NCBI GenBank assembly: GCA_964540995.1
Contig: CAZIOU010000003.1
Location: forward strand, 576 to 64,575
Reading direction: 5' to 3'
DNA from: an uncultured Gammaproteobacteria bacterium
GTDB lineage: Bacteria; Patescibacteriota; Patescibacteriia; UBA1558; 2-01-FULL-52-15
Length of the DNA: 64,000 bases
Positions within the stretch are counted from its first letter, which is position 1. Each line of letters opens with the position of its first letter. Both the position numbers and the translations under genes were made by a program. Positions 1,745-56,924 of the stretch are shown here, in pieces. The notes under the pieces were generated by a model, which ran no database searches, had not been told where the DNA came from, and saw only the letters and a list, made by a program, of their open reading frames with translations.

Positions 1745-3238
1745 ATGGCAGTTCTCTATCGTAAATATCGACCCCAAAGTTTCAACACGGTAGTGGGTCA
1801 AAATCATATCAAAACGACGCTGGCTGGTGAGATCATGAGCGGTCATTTGGCGCACGCTTATCTTTTCGTCGGGCCGCGTGGTACCGGTAAGACGACTCTG
1901 GCGCGTCTGTTTGCTCGGGCGATCAACTGTTCCAAACGTTCGGCTGATTCGGCCGAACCATGTAATAGTTGCGAGATGTGTCAACAGATTTTGGCGGGCC
2001 GCTCAATGGATATTATGGAGATCGATGCCGCTACTCATACACAAGTTGATAATGTCCGTGAAAATATAATTGCTAATGCCCAGGTGCCACCGTACAACAG
2101 TAAGGGGTATAAGGTATTTATCATCGATGAAGTACATATGTTATCCAAGGCGGCTTTCAATGCCTTGTTGAAAACCATGGAAGAACCGCCAGAGCGAGTA
2201 GTATTCATATTAGCTACGACCGAAATTCGTAAAGTACCAGAAACCATTATTTCGCGTTGTCAGCGTTTTGATTTCAAGAAGATCCCGACTATTTCCATTA
2301 TCGAACGCTTACAGTCGATCGCCAACCAAGAGCAGATTACGGTGCCGGCGGAAGTTCTGGCTGCTGTTGCTCGCCGCTCAGAAGGTGGTATGCGTGATGC
2401 AGAATCGATACTAGGTCAAATAGTAAGTTTAGCAGAAGATAAGAAGGTGACTGAAGAAATTGCTTACCTTGTTTTACCACGCAGTAATTGGTCGGATGTG
2501 GAGATCATCCTCGACAATCTGCAGGTGCGTAATGTGCAGCAAGCACTTAAGCATTTACACCAGTTAGTTCGCGAAGGGATAGACGTTGATGATCTGGCTT
2601 CTGATCTGGTGGAGTACACGCGTCAGATATTATTGGCGCAAGTGATGGGTCTGGCCTACAGTCCCGATATTGAAGAGCAACGGATTGCTAAGATTCGTGA
2701 GCTGGCTGGCCGTTTCAGTAGCAAAGAATTGGTGCAACTATTAGAAATATTTCTGGACAAAGCAGCTGAGACCAAATCAGCGATGATACCGCAGTTACCT
2801 TTGGAATTGGGTATTGTGGAGTTTTGCCAAGACGCTATTGTTAGCTCCGAGCCTATTGTGGAGCGACCAGTTATTGAAACGACTCAGACAGCTACTATCA
2901 CCCCGACTATGAATACCAGTACCTGGATGTCTATATTAGATGCTCTGAAACCGCACAATCATTCGCTGTCAGCCTTTATGAAGGTTGGTCATCCGATTAG
3001 TTTGGATAAAAATGTATTGACCATTGGATTTGAATACGATTTTCACGCCGAGCGAGTCCGCGAAAGCAAGAATAAGCAGACAGCCCAACAAATTATCAGC
3101 GATGTGCTGGGTCAGAAGATTGCTATTGATGCAGTAGTAGATAAGAATTATCAGGCCAATCATCAGAAGTTTAATGGTGGCCAAGACAAAGAAGTAGAAG
3201 ATGTTTTGGGTGTACTGGGTGGAGGAGAGATGGTTTAA
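1745..3238 (+). CDS. dnaX: DNA polymerase III subunit gamma/tau
   Basis: N-terminus 'YRKYRPQSF..VVGQ', Walker A 'GPRGTGKTT', clamp-loader box 'IIDEVHML'. SD-like 'TAGGAG' immediately upstream. Confidence 0.95.
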   Translation: MAVLYRKYRPQSFNTVVGQNHIKTTLAGEIMSGHLAHAYLFVGPRGTGKTTLARLFARAINCSKRSADSAEPCNSCEMCQQILAGRSMDIMEIDAATHTQVDNVRENIIANAQVPPYNSKGYKVFIIDEVHMLSKAAFNALLKTMEEPPERVVFILATTEIRKVPETIISRCQRFDFKKIPTISIIERLQSIANQEQITVPAEVLAAVARRSEGGMRDAESILGQIVSLAEDKKVTEEIAYLVLPRSNWSDVEIILDNLQVRNVQQALKHLHQLVREGIDVDDLASDLVEYTRQILLAQVMGLAYSPDIEEQRIAKIRELAGRFSSKELVQLLEIFLDKAAETKSAMIPQLPLELGIVEFCQDAIVSSEPIVERPVIETTQTATITPTMNTSTWMSILDALKPHNHSLSAFMKVGHPISLDKNVLTIGFEYDFHAERVRESKNKQTAQQIISDVLGQKIAIDAVVDKNYQANHQKFNGGQDKEVEDVLGVLGGGEMV

Positions 3239-3369
3239 TAAACTAGGCTTTAGGCGTTAGGTTTTTAGTTGTAGGACGTAGGGAAATCGTTACAGCAATA
3301 AATTTTTGTAAATGAATAGAGGAGCTCCGAATGGATGCTCCTCTATATGTTGGCCGTATTCGGCCAGCG

Positions 3370-3582
3370 CTATTGCGTGAACTGGTAGCCGTTGGGCGGG
3401 GTGACGCGGGCCGTGTCGCATTGAGCAGCGACGGTCTGGGTGGCCAAGTTTCTGGCCGCCAGACGCTCCTTCCCGATCTTGCCGGCTTCATGCATGACGA
3501 AGGCGCCGACAGCCATGATAACCAGGAAGAAAATCAAACCGGCTTCATTTTCGTCGATCATGTCGAGATCCTTTCTGATCAA
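3370..3582 (-). CDS. possible small membrane protein (alternative TTG start)
   Basis: 70-aa ORF with one hydrophobic helix 'GLIFFLVIMAVGAFV', in a locally GC-rich segment. It overlaps a 98-aa plus-strand ORF, so strand and reality are uncertain. Confidence 0.25.
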   Translation of the reverse strand: MIRKDLDMIDENEAGLIFFLVIMAVGAFVMHEAGKIGKERLAARNLATQTVAAQCDTARVTPPNGYQFTQ

Positions 3583-3652
3583 TGCCTAGCGAAACGGCTA
3601 GTTCGTGTACTAATTACTACATATTAGCACGATTATGTTTATTTGTCAAGTG

Positions 3653-7336: not shown

Positions 7337-8461
7337 TTATATGGCATCGACGCCAATGGCCTGATGAATATTGTTGTAGCCATCTCGTCGTAGGAGTTCA
7401 ACTAAGCCATCATTAATTTGACCTGGCAGTTGTGGGCCTTGAAATATAAGGCCAGTGATTAATTGGATCAAGCTGGCTCCTAATTTGATTTTGGTATAAG
7501 CATCTTTAGCTGAGAAGACACCGCCACAGCCGATGATGATTAGTTGTTGGCCGTATTTCTGATAGGTTAACTTGATCAACTCATTGGAACGGTTCCAGGT
7601 TGGTTTACCACTAAAATTGCCTATTGGATATTTAGCTAGTTCTGCGGGTACGAATTCTGGTACGGTTCGATCTTTTTGTAAATTACCGATGATAACACCA
7701 GCGATTGGGAACTGACTGATGACTTCAACCATGGCTAACGTTTCCTCGTCATTTTTTTCAATCGGCATTTTGATGAACAGTGCCTTGGTCAGGTTCAAGG
7801 CCGTAACAGCGGCCAGTAATTCGCGCAGTCGCTCCGGTTCGTAGAAGCTGATATTACCGATCAGATTGGGACAGCTGATATTTAGTTCGTAATAACTAAA
7901 GGGGATAGAGGAAGCTTCAGTTTGGCGAAAGGAGGCGATGATATCTTCGATGGCTTGTTCTTGGGTCATGGCCTCGTTGGTATTAGTTTTTCCGATACTG
8001 ATACCGACCGGGTGATTGAATTGAAGTGGCTGCAATTTGGTTAAGGTCTTGCCGATACCACCATTCTTATAGCCCTTGTTGACCATTAGCGATCGTGAGC
8101 GTACCAGACGTCCCAGACGAGGCTTAGGATTGCCCTCATAGGCCTTCTGGGTGATGGTGCCGATACTTCCGAAGCCAAAGCCCATGCTGGGTAGTATTTG
8201 TGTCAGCTGAGCCAGATAATCAAATCCTGCTGATAATCCAATGGGATTAGCGAAGTGAATACCGGCAATAGTTTGTTCTAGTGATTTGTCCTTAACTTGC
8301 CACAGACCTGCCAATATCCGACGCATTATTTTTGACCGGCCCATAAGTTCACCTTGACTGACAAGGAATTCATGGATTGTTTCGGAATCAAATGAGAAAA
8401 AAACCGGGCGAATAATGTAACGGTATTTCCAAGCAAAGATACGCAGGAAAAGATGTTTCAT
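7337..8461 (-). CDS. pyrD: dihydroorotate dehydrogenase (quinone), class 2
   Basis: 'FANPIGLSAGFD', 'GFGFGSIGTIT..GNPKPR', 'NISCPN', 'IIGCGGVFSAKDA..LGASLIQLITGLIF.GP'. Confidence 0.85.
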   Translation of the reverse strand: MKHLFLRIFAWKYRYIIRPVFFSFDSETIHEFLVSQGELMGRSKIMRRILAGLWQVKDKSLEQTIAGIHFANPIGLSAGFDYLAQLTQILPSMGFGFGSIGTITQKAYEGNPKPRLGRLVRSRSLMVNKGYKNGGIGKTLTKLQPLQFNHPVGISIGKTNTNEAMTQEQAIEDIIASFRQTEASSIPFSYYELNISCPNLIGNISFYEPERLRELLAAVTALNLTKALFIKMPIEKNDEETLAMVEVISQFPIAGVIIGNLQKDRTVPEFVPAELAKYPIGNFSGKPTWNRSNELIKLTYQKYGQQLIIIGCGGVFSAKDAYTKIKLGASLIQLITGLIFQGPQLPGQINDGLVELLRRDGYNNIHQAIGVDAI

Positions 8462-8553
8462 ATTGAACTAATATGGCAGAAATAAGGGATAAAATCAACT
8501 GACAATCTCATTGACAATAAGACTAAATAATTGTATCTTTTCCTAGCAAATAT

Positions 8554-8640
8554 TCGGGGATCGCCACCCTTCGCTAAAGCTTCGGGCGGCAGGTCTAATG
8601 GTAGCCCACCAGAGGCGGGCAGGGACGACACGCGCGAGAA
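8554..8640 (+). pseudogene. decayed tRNA-Gln-like fragment with internal hairpin insertion
   Basis: Begins TCGGGGATCG (identical to the tRNA-Gln 5' end at 9025) and contains a D-loop-like AGGTCTAATGGTAG, interrupted by CCACCCTTCGCTAAAGCTTCGGGCGGC. Confidence 0.4.
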
Positions 8641-8728
8641 TTGTATTTAAAGTCAGGTATTGGCAGAGAAGAGAAACAAAAAATTATTACTTACTCGGGG
8701 ATCGTCTAATGGTAGGACGACAGGTTCT
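8638..8728 (+). repeat. 91-bp direct repeat copy 1 (leader plus tRNA-Gln 5' half to the anticodon loop)
   Basis: Near-identical (2 mismatches) to 8968-9058. Ends ...ACAGGTTCT inside the anticodon loop, then diverges into a perfect palindrome CCTGCCTGCCGGCAGGCAGG. Confidence 0.7.
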
Positions 8729-8766
8729 CCTGCCTGCCGGCAGGCAGGGGTCCTTCAAAGGGTTCG

Positions 8767-9039
8767 ATGGAGTTTAAAATGAAACACTGGGTATATATTC
8801 TGATAAGTGAGACTACAAAGAATTGGTCATATGTAGGTAGTACTTCAAACTTGCAAGAACGCCTATATAGACATAGTATTGGTAGGGTTAGTTCTACGAA
8901 AAGCAAGAGACCGTTGAAATGTATTTACAGTGAGATTCATTCTGACAGAACGCAGGCTTATAAACGGGAATTGTATTTAAAGTCGGGTATTGGTAGAGAA
9001 GAGAAACAAAAAATTATTACTTACTCGGGGATCGTCTAA
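8767..9039 (+). CDS. GIY-YIG nuclease family protein (small YhbQ/UPF0213-like)
   Basis: 'WVYILISE..SYVGSTSNLQERLYRH' GIY-YIG core. The ATG lies in a degenerate T-arm-like GGGTTCGATGG; the C-terminus is encoded by repeat copy 2. Confidence 0.75.
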   Translation: MEFKMKHWVYILISETTKNWSYVGSTSNLQERLYRHSIGRVSSTKSKRPLKCIYSEIHSDRTQAYKRELYLKSGIGREEKQKIITYSGIV

Positions 9040-9058
9040 TGGTAGGACGACAGGTTCT
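8968..9058 (+). repeat. 91-bp direct repeat copy 2 (overlaps GIY-YIG 3' end and the intact tRNA-Gln 5' half)
   Basis: See copy 1. Confidence 0.7.
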
Positions 9059-9098
9059 GGTCCTGTTAATTGGGGTTCGAGTCCCTATCCCCGAACCA
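9025..9098 (+). tRNA. tRNA-Gln (anticodon CUG)
   Basis: Hand-folded: acceptor UCGGGGA/UCCCCGA, U8, D-stem GUC/GAC with loop UAAUGGUAG, anticodon stem ACAGG/CCUGU with loop UUCUGGU, T-arm UGGGG-UUCGAGU-CCCUA, discriminator A, encoded CCA. Confidence 0.85.
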
Positions 9099-9162
9099 CC
9101 AGCCAGAGGCTGGTAAGGCGCGGCTACAAGGTAACTACTTTTCATTTAAATTATTATCAAAA

Positions 9163-9303
9163 CTTTTAGGGACTCGAACCCGGGAAGGGGTCGGGAAACG
9201 GGAGTTTCCCGTGGCGGAAGTACTGAAACCGAAGGGTTTCAGAATCACGCTTTAGCGTGATTGGGTTCTAGGAGTGAAACGACGGAGTCCCTATCCCCGA
9301 ACC
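9163..9303. pseudogene. tRNA-Gln-derived fragments (inverted T-arm copy; degenerate copy with insertions ending GAGTCCCTATCCCCGAACCA)
   Basis: 9163-9185 is the reverse complement of the tRNA-Gln T-arm. 9195-9303 has UCGGGAA ... UUGGGUUC[16-nt insert]GAGUCCCUAUCCCCGAACCA, identical over the last 20 nt to the real tRNA 3' end. Confidence 0.4.
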
Positions 9304-9422
9304 ACCCTGCGTCGTCCAAAGACGACTTCGGGTGGCCTCTGGCCATCCGACAACCGAAGGTTGTGCAGGGTAGTAACCCGAAGCTTTAAAGCGAAGGGTT
9401 ACAGGTTAGCAATTTATACATA

Positions 9423-10190
9423 ATGAAACTAATCTCACTCAACACATGGGGAGGACGGGCGGGGAAAGAAAAATTGTTAGATTTTTTTGCTAGATATCGC
9501 GACGTCGATATTTTTTGTTTGCAAGAAATTTGTGCTGGACCATTTCCCGAGCTTGAAGGTACTCAAGCAGGCGGTAAGACGCTTAAGCACGAAGAGGTGA
9601 TGGTATACGGAAGACAAGAGATTGCTGAGTTATTGAAGAATGACTATGTTTCTTTTTTTGATCCTCACTTCTTAGATATTTACGGTTTAATGCTGCTGAT
9701 GAAGAAAGATATTCCTGCAATTTCACAAGGAGATACATTTGTCTATCGCGAAAAAGGACACGTTCCCAGCGGTGATGCCGGTAATCATGCACGCAATATT
9801 CAGTACGCCACTATTCAGACCACGAAAGGCCCCGTGACTCTTGTTAACTTTCATGGATTGTGGAATGGCGGTGGCAAGGGCGATAGCGAAGATAGATTAT
9901 TACAGTCGGATCGTATTATTGAGTTTCTCAAATCTCTGACGAATCCATATATATTTTGTGGTGATTTTAATCTCAAGCCTGATACCGAAAGCTTGAAAAA
10001 GTTCGAAACATTGGGACTACGCAATTTGATCAAAGAATTCGGCATTACCTCCACCAGAACGAGCCTCTATACTAAGGAGGAGAAGTTTGCCGACTACACC
10101 TTCGTCAGTAATGGTATAATGGTTAAGGACTTCAAAGTATTGCCAGACGAGGTTTCTGATCATGCGGCAATGTATCTTGAATTTGACTAA
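9423..10190 (+). CDS. endonuclease/exonuclease/phosphatase (EEP) family protein
   Basis: 'LNTWGG', 'DIFCLQE', C-terminal 'SDHAAM'. Confidence 0.75.
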   Translation: MKLISLNTWGGRAGKEKLLDFFARYRDVDIFCLQEICAGPFPELEGTQAGGKTLKHEEVMVYGRQEIAELLKNDYVSFFDPHFLDIYGLMLLMKKDIPAISQGDTFVYREKGHVPSGDAGNHARNIQYATIQTTKGPVTLVNFHGLWNGGGKGDSEDRLLQSDRIIEFLKSLTNPYIFCGDFNLKPDTESLKKFETLGLRNLIKEFGITSTRTSLYTKEEKFADYTFVSNGIMVKDFKVLPDEVSDHAAMYLEFD

Positions 10191-12146: not shown

Positions 12147-12356
12147 TCAGGTGACAAGACGTTGACAGAAATGCCCGAGAAGGCTTCGCGACGGTATCTG
12201 ATCTCGCTCGCCGCGAACCTGATCCATCTGAGCATTCAGACCATCGTCCATGAACAGTTCGTGAATCGATTGAGGGGGAATAATTTTCCCTTCTACTTCG
12301 TTCATGAATAGCTCATGAACTCTGGGATCCACAGTGGTGCTGTCCAGTTGTCTCAT
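12147..12356 (-). CDS. hypothetical small protein
   Basis: 69-aa ORF, last gene of a three-gene minus-strand islet. Confidence 0.35.
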   Translation of the reverse strand: MRQLDSTTVDPRVHELFMNEVEGKIIPPQSIHELFMDDGLNAQMDQVRGERDQIPSRSLLGHFCQRLVT

Positions 12357-56245: not shown

Positions 56246-56300
56246 TCGTTTCGACCGAAGTCCCGCTCGGGTGGGACGAGCAGAGAAACCTTTATTATAC
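56246..56300 (-). repeat. inverted copy of the GIY-YIG-flanking repeat
   Basis: GTCGTTTCGACC[hairpin]GAGCAGAGAAACCTTTATTATA equals revcomp of the conserved ends of 56856-56917. Confidence 0.6.
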
Positions 56301-56396
56301 TTTGGGTGGCAATACAGTATTTAGTAAAGGTTTCTCTGCTCGTTATCTTATGGATAGCTGGGAAAAGTCACAATCATAATTGGTTGCTGTGTAGTG

Positions 56397-56458
56397 TGTA
56401 ATAAAGGTTTCTCCGCTCTCTACGCCTGCGGCTTCGTTCGGTCGAAACGACAGAGCAA
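56397..56458 (+). repeat. direct repeat R1 flanking the GIY-YIG gene (3' side)
   Basis: GTGTAATAAAGGTTTCTCCGCTC[22-nt hairpin]GTCGAAACGACAGAGCA. Confidence 0.7.
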
Positions 56459-56460
56459 TA

Positions 56461-56787
56461 TTAATCTTCGCGAGGGACTATCTCCTCCCCCGTCAGAGCA
56501 AAGTCATACAAGTCGATGAATTTGGGATTATAGATTTGGATGAGTTGTAATTTTTTATTTCTGTTCCAGCGTTTGATTTGCTTCTCGCGCGCGATGGCCT
56601 CTAATGGACTACCATAATGTTGGAAGAAAAGCAGTTTGTGTGTATTGTAGTGGGCGCTAAAACTTCGAGGATTATATTTTGTCCGATGTTCATTAATTCG
56701 CCGCTCAATGTTATTCGTAATGCCCACGTAAATACAGGTATTGTATTTGTTACTAATTATATAGGTGGTGTAGATGCGATCTGGCAT
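56461..56787 (-). CDS. GIY-YIG nuclease family protein (second copy, diverged)
   Basis: 'IYTTYIISNKYNTCIYVGITNNIERRINEH'. Confidence 0.8.
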   Translation of the reverse strand: MPDRIYTTYIISNKYNTCIYVGITNNIERRINEHRTKYNPRSFSAHYNTHKLLFFQHYGSPLEAIAREKQIKRWNRNKKLQLIQIYNPKFIDLYDFALTGEEIVPRED

Positions 56788-56855
56788 TGGAGGTTAAATA
56801 AACTGTAATAATTTTTTTTGGCCTGTCTGGCTACGCAAACTTGGAGAAGTCTCGA

Positions 56856-56917
56856 TTATGTGTAATAAAGGTTTCTCCGCTCACCTCTCGCCGCGAGAGG
56901 TTTGGTCGAAACGACAG
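56856..56917 (+). repeat. direct repeat R2 flanking the GIY-YIG gene (5' side)
   Basis: TGTGTAATAAAGGTTTCTCCGCTC[ACCTCTCGCCGCGAGAGGTTTG]GTCGAAACGACAGAGCA. Ends are identical to R1; the middle hairpin differs. Confidence 0.7.
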
Positions 56918-56924
56918 AGCAGAA

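Follow-up and report, generated by a model that had tools for sequence, protein, structure and literature searches.

The 64,000 nt stretch of DNA analysed here (positions 576 to 64,575 of contig CAZIOU010000003.1, assembly GCA_964540995.1), called the window below, comes from an ultra-small bacterium whose assembly is titled 'uncultured Gammaproteobacteria bacterium' and which GTDB places in the Patescibacteriota. The window has a single transfer RNA (tRNA) gene, an intact tRNA-Gln(CUG) at 9025-9098, identified by ARAGORN and by Rfam model RF00005 (58.7 bits); ARAGORN found no transfer-messenger RNA in the window. The tRNA gene is overlapped at its 5' end by a small open reading frame (ORF) for a single-domain GIY-YIG nuclease and lies among partial, decayed copies of itself, one of which is followed by a perfect 20 nt palindrome, CCTGCCTGCCGGCAGGCAGG, termed PAL. 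The features of this zone are as follows.

8511-8539, forward strand: promoter-like site (TTGACA, 17 nt spacer, TATCTT; 10/12 in a consensus scan), 14 nt 5' of the first tRNA-derived base
8554-8630, forward strand: pseudo-tRNA-Gln 'a' (repeat families D3 and D4; reading of the sequence)
8629-8709, forward strand: remnant of an earlier nuclease gene copy, its last ~26 codons and stop, forming the left part of the first copy of direct repeat D1
8695-8728, forward strand: 5' half of pseudo-tRNA-Gln 'b' (repeat D1; pairwise alignment)
8729-8748, no strand: PAL, a perfect 20 nt palindrome (exact match), as an insert at tRNA position 35/36
8749-8778, forward strand: decayed remnant of tRNA positions 36 to ~60 (~17/27 positions match)
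8779-9039, forward strand: single-domain GIY-YIG nuclease ORF (86 aa from 8779, 90 aa from 8767; Pfam PF01541)
8990-9017, forward strand: promoter-like site in the 3' end of the ORF (TTGGTA, 16 nt spacer, AATTAT; consensus match only), ending 7 nt before the tRNA
9025-9098, forward strand: tRNA-Gln(CUG), the sole functional-looking copy
9167-9181, reverse strand: inverted T-arm fragment of 15 nt (inverted repeat I1)
9186-9306, forward strand: pseudo-tRNA-Gln 'c' (repeat D5; DNA fold z=-3.9; block common to relative L140)
9307-9402, forward strand: cluster of nested GC-rich hairpins (inverted repeats I2 and I6; DNA fold)

The arrangement is built around a direct repeat, D1, the two copies of which (8635-8728 and 8965-9058; 94 nt, 97% identical at 91/94 positions, spacing 330, from blastn and a repeat search) each consist of the final 57 nt of the ORF and tRNA positions 1-35, leaving a partial and a complete tRNA copy as repeats. 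The 236 nt between them are filled by PAL, a tRNA remnant and the nuclease ORF. The array as a whole runs in the order pseudo-tRNA a, ORF remnant, pseudo-tRNA b with PAL, ORF and tRNA. The cassette hence lies between a displaced, promoter-proximal pseudo 5' part and the intact tRNA, with tRNA sequence on both sides, the nuclease gene taking its last codons and stop from the initial 12-15 nt of that intact tRNA. These sequences suggest that the tRNA-Gln gene of the window was invaded at least twice by the cassette. On balance, it appears probable that the gene has been colonised, in a homing-like, tRNA-targeting manner, by selfish cassettes of ~330 bp whose sole gene encodes a UPF0213/Slx1-like GIY-YIG nuclease.

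Much of this anatomy had been recognised in a preliminary description of the window made from its letters. The single intact tRNA, near-identical direct repeats (then put at 91 bp) bracketing a GIY-YIG ORF, a perfect palindrome after a break in the anticodon loop of the first repeat copy, a tRNA 5' end with a hairpin insert at 8554, an inverted T-arm and a downstream copy ending in the exact tRNA 3' end were all found again. So was the proposal that a small YhbQ/UPF0213-type gene is lodged in the tRNA-Gln locus, and the present data agree with its view that the intact tRNA was kept through duplication of the tRNA 5' part, with insertion or duplication having occurred more than once.

The ORF from 8767 to 9039 matches the Pfam GIY-YIG family (PF01541) with E=1.9e-15. 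In the database version of the protein (P0001), which has 86 aa, translation begins at the second ATG, at 8779; the 90 aa form is without an exact record. As GGAG lies 7 nt upstream of this ATG and the database gene call starts there, 8779 is the likelier start, and the first ATG, at 8767, is probably unused. The degenerate 3'-half-like sequence behind the palindrome had been credited with supplying the start codon: this remnant (8749-8778) does provide both the GGAG ribosome-binding site and the first ATG, but not, it would seem, the ATG from which the protein is made. At its other end, the last four codons (SGIV) and TAA stop of the ORF coincide with tRNA positions 1-15. The 27 homologues identified, at 53-67% identity, all come from Patescibacteria-type sources, and Y6, Y18, R28, H32 and E64 are invariant in the 28 aligned sequences; from established knowledge of I-TevI and UvrC, we take these residues to be catalytic. 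An AlphaFold2 model with a predicted local distance difference test score of 93 has the topology beta-beta-alpha-alpha-beta-alpha-alpha, bearing out by structure prediction the expected GIY-YIG fold and adding no further domain. Its top fold matches among solved structures were the UPF0213 protein BH0048, the Slx1 nuclease domain, HIGLE, I-TevI and UvrC, and a profile search against PDB sequences likewise found the UPF0213 proteins BH0048 (1e-9) and EF2693 (1e-7). The protein is accordingly best described as a predicted single-domain YhbQ/UPF0213-like, Slx1-like nuclease, and its nearest solved relatives being UPF0213 proteins suggests that it belongs to a sister branch of the Ssn family (cd10448).

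The promoter-like site at 8990-9017 has a twin at 8660-8687, in the first repeat copy, found by the consensus scan, and an equivalent TTGGNA-16-TATNNT stands at the same distance from the tRNA (~7 nt) in about 9/18 of the family loci described below; it is a putative promoter. Were the nuclease gene and tRNA transcribed together, cutting by ribonuclease P at tRNA +1 would strip the stop codon from the read-through nuclease messenger RNA, which could hold expression low.

Upstream of the cassette, the promoter-like site at 8511-8539 is the putative ancestral tRNA promoter. The sequence 8459-8563 is 91% identical to positions 3023-3127 of L141, one of the related loci fetched for comparison (cited by their L numbers), where this block lies directly 5' of an intact tRNA, as it also does in L143. 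Pseudo-tRNA a consists of TCGGGGATCG (tRNA positions 1-10), a 30 nt GC hairpin insert (8564-8593), TCTAATGGTAG, a 19 nt GC insert (8605-8623) and GACGACA; measured from the promoter, it stands where the tRNA itself stands in L141 and L143, and so appears to occupy the ancestral tRNA position. It is followed by the relic of an earlier ORF, in which tblastn matched nuclease residues 65-90 at 8629-8706 with 92% identity, as expected from the earlier observation that the leader of the first repeat copy would encode the same C-terminal peptide. Pseudo-tRNA b equals the first 34 nt of the intact tRNA exactly and stops after anticodon position 35, with 35/35 aligned positions matching; the sequence immediately 5' of PAL reads ...ACAGGTTCT, which places the palindrome between anticodon positions 35 and 36. 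The two sides of this point differ in age, as identity is 91/94 to the left of PAL and ~17/27 to its right.

Downstream of the intact tRNA, the inverted fragment at 9167-9181 is 100% complementary to 9073-9087 in the T-arm; it is also present in L140 and reads as the relic of an older rearrangement. Pseudo-tRNA c starts with a AGGGGTCG 5' end, contains three strong hairpins and a 16 nt insert in the T-loop (56/57), and finishes with an exact 22 nt copy of the tRNA 3' end (9285-9306). It is probably the relic of a downstream, or 'mirror', cassette like that of L141, although the tRNA origin of its 5' two-thirds is only weakly indicated by the sequence. The hairpin cluster behind it folds strongly as DNA (-33.2 kcal/mol for 9300-9410, z=-7.7), and within it 9373-9402 is an inverted copy of the CTAAAGCTT-loop hairpin present at 8564-8593. 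This pair had been taken for an inverted repeat bounding the whole zone. The sequences are indeed there (12 nt exact, 8575-8586 and 9377-9388, and longer if a 2 nt indel is allowed), but with the left copy falling within the D-arm of pseudo-tRNA a, they are better read as two copies of one small hairpin motif than as the ends of an element. Hairpins of this type have a conserved CTRAAGCTT loop, CG..CG closure and variable stems, and occur in both orientations in the window; others were seen in L014 (~2460-2500, at the same pseudo-tRNA position in a non-syntenic locus) and L016 (~140-175 and ~510-545). The idea that they form a wider repeat family was dropped, there being just four matches in all fetched loci. 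The genes flanking the zone are pyrD, an EEP-family gene and an M23 peptidase gene, with no integrase, transposase or recombinase gene within 5 kb.

The preliminary description had proposed comparing related loci for the presence or absence of the inserted block, and such a comparison finds it to be polymorphic. L141, reached through the downstream neighbour gene, is a syntenic relative whose flanks on either side match the window at ~82% nucleotide identity; its intact tRNA-Gln(CUG), which matches 9022-9098 of the window at 98.7% identity, lies directly 3' of the same promoter region, and the window's block 8564-9024 is absent. In a second assembly, L143, an uninterrupted tRNA 5' half comes straight after the promoter, with no upstream cassette, and the contig ends in the tRNA. 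As both have the tRNA directly behind the promoter, the 8564-9024 block represents an insertion/deletion polymorphism, of which these two loci carry the empty upstream site. L141 is not free of nuclease genes: 3' of its tRNA, within 3218-3600, are a different GIY-YIG ORF of 80 aa (PF01541, 2.5e-14) and then a full-length pseudo-tRNA-Gln with a 41 nt hairpin after position 10 and a 24 nt hairpin in the T-loop (56/57), making this the tRNA-Gln case of the mirror layout. L140, whose neighbouring sequence is 93% identical, begins inside an L141-type pseudo-tRNA and continues into the window's downstream relic block; the T-loop hairpin, being common to L140 (1-110) and L141, is thus inherited. L014 shares pseudo-tRNA a with the window, including the 30 nt insert (60 nt, 92%), but is non-syntenic and lies at a tRNA-Gln(UUG) gene. 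Taken together, these sequences indicate that at least two types of cassette have been present here and that close relatives differ by gain, loss or both. The L140, L142 and L143 assemblies were seen to break exactly in the tRNA/pseudo-tRNA zone, at the promoter, tRNA or hairpin; such repeats are a practical cause of fragmented Patescibacteria assemblies and can mislead tRNA annotation.

A similar layout is widespread. Nineteen homologous loci were taken from species-representative genomes of diverse Patescibacteria, and in 17 of the 19 the ORF abuts an intact tRNA-Gln, mostly with anticodon UUG, although L017 has CUG like the window. The stop of intact ORFs is usually the TAA of the D-loop, and nearly all homologues end in ...SGIV, the translation of TCGGGGATCGTC (tRNA-Gln positions 1-12). 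Thirteen loci have a pseudo-tRNA-Gln 5' of the ORF with PAL, or a slightly mutated PAL, exactly at 35/36, and three over-long homologue gene calls even translate the palindrome (LPAGRQG / SPACRQAG) together with the tRNA 5' half. The pseudo-copies run from position 1 to anywhere between ~41 and ~64, never including the 3' acceptor strand, and many have extra GC-rich hairpins in the D-arm; inserts recur after position 10, at ~21, at 35/36 and at 56/57, and, PAL aside, their hairpin sequences differ. Arrays are found in L009, L012 and L018 as well as in the window. Truncated or stop-bearing ORFs, as would be expected of a selfish nuclease gene, account for 5/18 of the tRNA-Gln type (L014, L015, L017, L018 and L019). 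The same architecture in many independent assemblies makes it unlikely to be an assembly artefact. Partial synteny is evident among the Magasanikbacteria-like loci L002, L003, L008 and L019. Five of the loci (L002, L003, L011, L012 and L014) were noted to come from metagenome-assembled genomes titled 'uncultured Gammaproteobacteria bacterium', although they look like the Patescibacteria ones, and the titles of such cassette-bearing genomes are probably wrong.

Other tRNA genes are also affected. The mirror layout, in which an intact tRNA is followed by the ORF and a 3' tRNA fragment, occurs at tRNA-Phe in L013, where PAL sits in the T-loop at 56/57, and at tRNA-Ser in L016. Loci found independently through PAL follow the upstream layout: the tRNA concerned is Asn, Ser, Lys, Arg or Leu, and PAL occupies the D-loop. 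At the tRNA-Lys locus the ORF likewise ends at the D-loop TAA. Identity to the window's ORF is 50-65% among tRNA-Gln loci vs 35-50% at other tRNAs, so nuclease lineages go with tRNA species. In pairwise alignments, the identity of pseudo 5' halves is 94% to the tRNA of the same genome and 83% to the tRNAs of other genomes.

PAL is not private to the cassette. Within the 64 kb window it is single even when three mismatches are allowed (none being expected by chance), 30 nt upstream of the ORF, but exact matches were found in at least 120 metagenome contig stretches (L020-L139), mostly of 30-50% GC, and in 35 further stretches of viral contigs (L145-L179). It is a separately dispersed 20 bp repeat of more than 150 loci, most of which have neither a tRNA nor a family ORF within a few kb; ~95% of copies lack such a gene. 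Wherever the uninterrupted sequence is known, PAL is a precise 20 bp insert with no target duplication. In tRNA-derived sequence it sits in D-, anticodon- and T-loops, and it may be nested in itself (L003, L004, L113 and L118). Up to four copies occur in 9 kb (L079) and at least six on one 29 kb viral contig, and many stand at contig ends. Clustering of the ORFs near PAL in 155 loci gave a sole recurrent neighbour, the small GIY-YIG gene, in eight loci at a median distance of 52 nt, with PAL upstream, downstream or on both sides. When PAL was removed in silico, ARAGORN recognised no new tRNA across any junction, and the PAL-bearing tRNA pieces are hence truly partial or decayed. A general preference for hairpin loops was considered and dropped: a minimum free energy (MFE) folding test on 60 nt placed PAL in loops no more often than random sites (31% vs 30.5%), and enrichment of perfect flanking arms of >=7 nt, though 3-fold (6.6% vs 2.2%, p=0.007), is modest. 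The preference is therefore retained for tRNA-derived sequence only. A literature search for the palindrome and its translated peptides returned nothing relevant.

Several individual PAL sites deserve mention. In L112 (~12270-12330), PAL lies in frame in an apparent P-type ATPase gene, just before the VAFVGDGINDAPALA motif, the reading being ...KLQRS-LPAGRQ-VAFVGDG... (PAL as SLPAGRQ; flanks translated by hand). Rickettsia genes offer a parallel, with palindromic elements likewise inserted in frame. In L061 (~3590-3650), it interrupts an ORF translating to FVVMPNHVHGIVV, which looks like an IS200/RAYT-type Y1 transposase motif. Elsewhere (L097, L075, L021, L064, L038 and L132), PAL stands inside sequences of the type CGTCATTCTGAGCG...GAATC or GTCATCCTGAGC; the flanks in L097 and the others resemble by eye the Ssn hairpin motif NTS, CGTCATTCCCGCG..CGCGGGAATC (PMC11893778), and possibly represent one hairpin repeat inserted into another.

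The window also holds a second small GIY-YIG ORF, of 108 aa, on the reverse strand at 56461-56787 (PF01541, E=2.5e-16), with no tRNA nearby. It is flanked on both sides by direct repeats of ~65 nt, GCTCTGTCGTTTCGACC...AGCGGAGAAACCTTTATTACACA (within 56250-56920), with a partial inverted copy further downstream, and looks like the hairpin-gene-hairpin layout described for ssnA. The style of its sequence (REKQIKRWNRNKK) resembles that of the Ssn/cd10448 type.

If the tRNA gene is the target of the cassette, as we favour, the nuclease would break it in or beside the tRNA, most simply at 35/36, since the resident sequence ends and PAL begins there; it is the layout of the sequences that leads us to infer cleavage of the anticodon-loop region. 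The break would be repaired from a cassette-bearing allele, or from an out-of-register sister chromosome, with the conserved tRNA as homology on both sides, leaving the resident 5' half behind as a pseudo-copy and joining the cassette's leader and positions 1-35 to the resident 3' half. Because the cassette ends in the leader, promoter-like site and tRNA positions 1-35, the tRNA would be rebuilt and the host would survive. The rebuilt tRNA would again be a target, such that repeated rounds, or unequal crossing-over, could produce arrays; an extra round or unequal crossing-over would also leave the repeat ending exactly at position 35 and the earlier ORF kept only as its last codons. Recombination between the repeats could delete cassettes as well. 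Displaced copies would meanwhile gather small GC-rich hairpins at the recurrent loop positions, and these might either destroy leftover nuclease sites or, PAL above all, be the nuclease's own single-stranded DNA (ssDNA) recognition elements, as in Ssn. By analogy with that family, PAL may be such an element, rather than or besides a site-destroying insert.

Several points weigh against this account. A classical homing site is made immune by the insertion, whereas here the rebuilt tRNA is intact and a site inside it persists, only the pseudo-copies being interrupted by PAL or other hairpins. At 86 aa and one domain, the protein has no separate DNA-binding module of the kind found in I-TevI and the Seg proteins. 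The ORFs of the tRNA-Gln type are ~60% identical, no lower than a flanking housekeeping gene (~66%), and much of the distribution is therefore compatible with prolonged vertical inheritance and occasional loss. The remnant 3' of PAL still tracks the local anticodon stem, and as positions 36-64 in L005 and L010 equal those of their own tRNA, duplication in situ followed by PAL insertion fits as well as insertion at 35/36. The family was not found in IMG/VR viral contigs, which offers no phage vector, and since the contigs of the 91-93% identical relatives L140 and L142 break inside the locus, the polarity of gain vs loss is not fixed.

There are also rival explanations. One, unlikely on the whole if far from negligible, dispenses with homing into the tRNA and makes the protein an Ssn-like ssDNA enzyme with PAL, and perhaps other GC hairpins, as its cognate site: it would nick ssDNA at hairpins and drive the spread of 20 bp palindromes, striking tRNA genes and pseudo-copies as their DNA folds into stem-loops, while its gene persisted through break repair by duplication. 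It overlaps with tRNA-targeted homing, and the two are not mutually exclusive. Ssn proteins are themselves single-domain GIY-YIG enzymes, of ~94 aa, that cut only ssDNA beside an NTS/SRM hairpin repeat flanking their own gene (PMC11893778). The recurrent pairing of small GIY-YIG ORFs with PAL on either or both sides, the precise and sometimes self-nested insertion of PAL in tRNA loops with no target duplication, the enrichment of flanking arms and the presence of the structure-specific nucleases Slx1 and HIGLE among the top structural neighbours all speak for such an enzyme. However, the great majority of PAL copies lie more than a few kb from any such gene, the simple folding test gave no hairpin-loop preference, and the profile matches UPF0213 and not demonstrably the Ssn clade cd10448. 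The cassettes of L016 and L141 have other hairpins and no PAL, and while GIY-YIG enzymes hydrolyse DNA, none is known to join it, which leaves the insertion step with no known enzyme; nor does this explanation alone account for the fixed ORF-tRNA junction. That junction, conserved along with partial synteny in the Magasanikbacteria-like loci, is instead a strength of an arrangement that is not mobile at all, but old and vertically inherited, with a nuclease gene co-transcribed with tRNA-Gln for a host function, arrays formed by unequal crossing-over or slippage, and differences between genomes due to losses. ORF identity similar to that of flanking housekeeping genes, the match of pseudo-copies to the local tRNA, and direct repeats that permit duplication and deletion alike would all agree with it. 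Nevertheless, related ORFs use different tRNAs in both orientations, one and the same tRNA-Gln(CUG) locus carries two different kinds of cassette in relatives whose flanks are ~82% identical, and pseudo-tRNA a recurs with its hairpin at the non-syntenic tRNA-Gln(UUG) locus of L014. The proportion of degenerate ORFs also argues against a needed host function. We consider this explanation improbable.

Two further explanations were considered. A group I or other intron, or a split tRNA, in which splicing would remove the ORF and join the upstream 5' half, as an exon, to the 3' half at 9059, accords with the break at 35/36, a position at which Patescibacteria group I tRNA introns are enriched (PMC13011429), and with a weak, sub-threshold NCBIfam match of the protein to group I intron endonucleases (20.6 bits vs a cutoff of 56). 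The preliminary description had allowed for a group-I-intron-like arrangement, but no intron model matched 8400-9500 even at E<=10, cmscan returning the tRNA and two chance small RNA matches only, with no intron RNA core. Rfam at its gathering threshold likewise gave the tRNA alone. The would-be intron also holds a complete second 5' half, the uninterrupted tRNA at 9025-9098 already stands alone, and pseudo-copies elsewhere are mutated, truncated and full of inserts, all of which brings this explanation close to refuted. Reduction of an integrase-type genomic island or prophage remnant to its att repeats is very improbable too, for all that mobile-element integration typically leaves a complete and a partial tRNA copy as direct repeats (PMC9897764). 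Only 236 nt separate the repeats, with no recombinase gene within 5 kb, the same 0.3 kb content recurs in many genomes, and the end of the ORF itself belongs to the duplicated sequence. Moreover, it is the tRNA 5' part that is duplicated here, whereas integrase-type islands are said, in work attributed to Williams in 2002, usually to duplicate the 3' part.

A broader proposal, which we regard as rather unlikely, would unite nuclease and palindrome: the small GIY-YIG proteins of UPF0213 type in Patescibacteria would act as structure-specific nucleases on ssDNA, teamed with the 20 bp palindrome, their genes nesting at tRNAs and always rebuilding them, and the palindrome being inserted precisely into the loops of stem-loops with no transposase or integrase. 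The insertion sites would then be the D-, anticodon- and T-loops of tRNAs, further hairpins and a protein gene, the last apparently in frame. If true, PAL would be among the smallest insertion-capable DNA repeats known, and the YhbQ/UPF0213 family would gain a function; a literature search on UPF0213/YhbQ/COG2827 found none for the family. Single-domain YhbQ/UPF0213 GIY-YIG proteins are very common in bacteria, and the Ssn branch was characterised only in 2025.

The preliminary description knew of no report of such an arrangement for small GIY-YIG proteins of the YhbQ type, and full-text literature searches found no paper describing GIY-YIG cassettes at Patescibacteria tRNA genes, or PAL; a survey of tRNA introns in Patescibacteria (PMC13011429) mentions neither tRNA-Gln nor GIY-YIG. 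The components are of known kinds: a free-standing nuclease gene, a target gene duplicated in part, and a small GIY-YIG gene with a hairpin repeat next to it. What is new is their combination, in which the gene for an 86 aa single-domain nuclease ends inside the tRNA it restores, and arrays of displaced tRNA halves are marked by a 20 bp palindrome, over many tRNA species of a whole phylum. The locus offers a testable setting, with a candidate target (tRNA-Gln gene DNA or the PAL hairpin) and natural filled and empty alleles. If colonisation by cassettes is borne out, it would represent a very small self-perpetuating unit, ~330 bp comprising an 86 aa nuclease gene, a promoter-like site and half a tRNA, and would exemplify a selfish gene living in an essential RNA gene with no intron, by carrying a spare part. 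The palindrome is a separate lead on the spread of tiny repeats in reduced genomes.

PAL itself invites comparison with other small palindromic repeats. Like the cyanobacterial SDRs, very small dispersed palindromic repeats reportedly described by Elhai et al. in 2008 (a work that PMC3116915 cites), and like the REP/REPIN-RAYT systems, it is ~20 bp long, palindromic, dispersed and sometimes self-nested, with a candidate enzyme gene flanked by copies. Unlike in REP/REPIN-RAYT, the candidate enzyme is a GIY-YIG nuclease and not a Y1/HUH transposase, and PAL is precisely placed in tRNA-derived loops. A close parallel for the protein is the Ssn family, as both are single-domain GIY-YIG proteins of ~90 aa whose genes adjoin a hairpin repeat also scattered elsewhere as many solitary copies, and the authors of PMC11893778, who mention neither tRNA nor Patescibacteria, note the insertion sequence-like look of Ssn genes and hairpin repeats. 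The cassette protein differs in being placed by its profile with UPF0213, and PAL in being a perfect 20 bp palindrome distinct from the SRM consensus; and while an Ssn gene is flanked by a hairpin dispersed through its genome, the cassette has PAL beside its homologues in many loci but only a single PAL in the 64 kb window.

The resemblance to integrase-type islands and prophages at tRNA genes (PMC9897764) is one of topology only, a complete and a partial tRNA copy surrounding the insert while the tRNA stays functional: the cassette has no recombinase, its insert is 0.3 kb vs 9-120 kb, the 5' part is duplicated and the repeat includes the end of the cargo gene. Another comparison is with free-standing homing genes. 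SegB of phage T4 is a GIY-YIG homing endonuclease whose gene lies in the T4 tRNA gene cluster (PMC2330249), and the cassette shares with such genes a nuclease gene placed outside any intron, among or beside tRNA genes, an expected spread by break repair with co-conversion of the flanks, presence/absence polymorphism and decay. Unlike segB, it encodes a protein of 86 aa with no DNA-binding domain, is chromosomal in Patescibacteria rather than phage-borne, and has an ORF that overlaps the tRNA, part of which is duplicated; cleavage by the cassette protein is, moreover, only inferred. Fungal mitochondria provide the other likeness, as endonuclease ORFs there have a gene on one side and a partial duplicate of the gene's end on the other, as at atp6 and cob (PMC6279837). 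In both cases an endonuclease ORF separates an intact gene from a displaced, decaying partial duplicate, but in the Patescibacteria the target is a tRNA gene, the duplicated part in the tRNA-Gln type is the 5' part with its promoter-like leader rather than the 3' coding end, arrays suggestive of repeated rounds have built up, and the pseudo-copies carry mini-hairpins.

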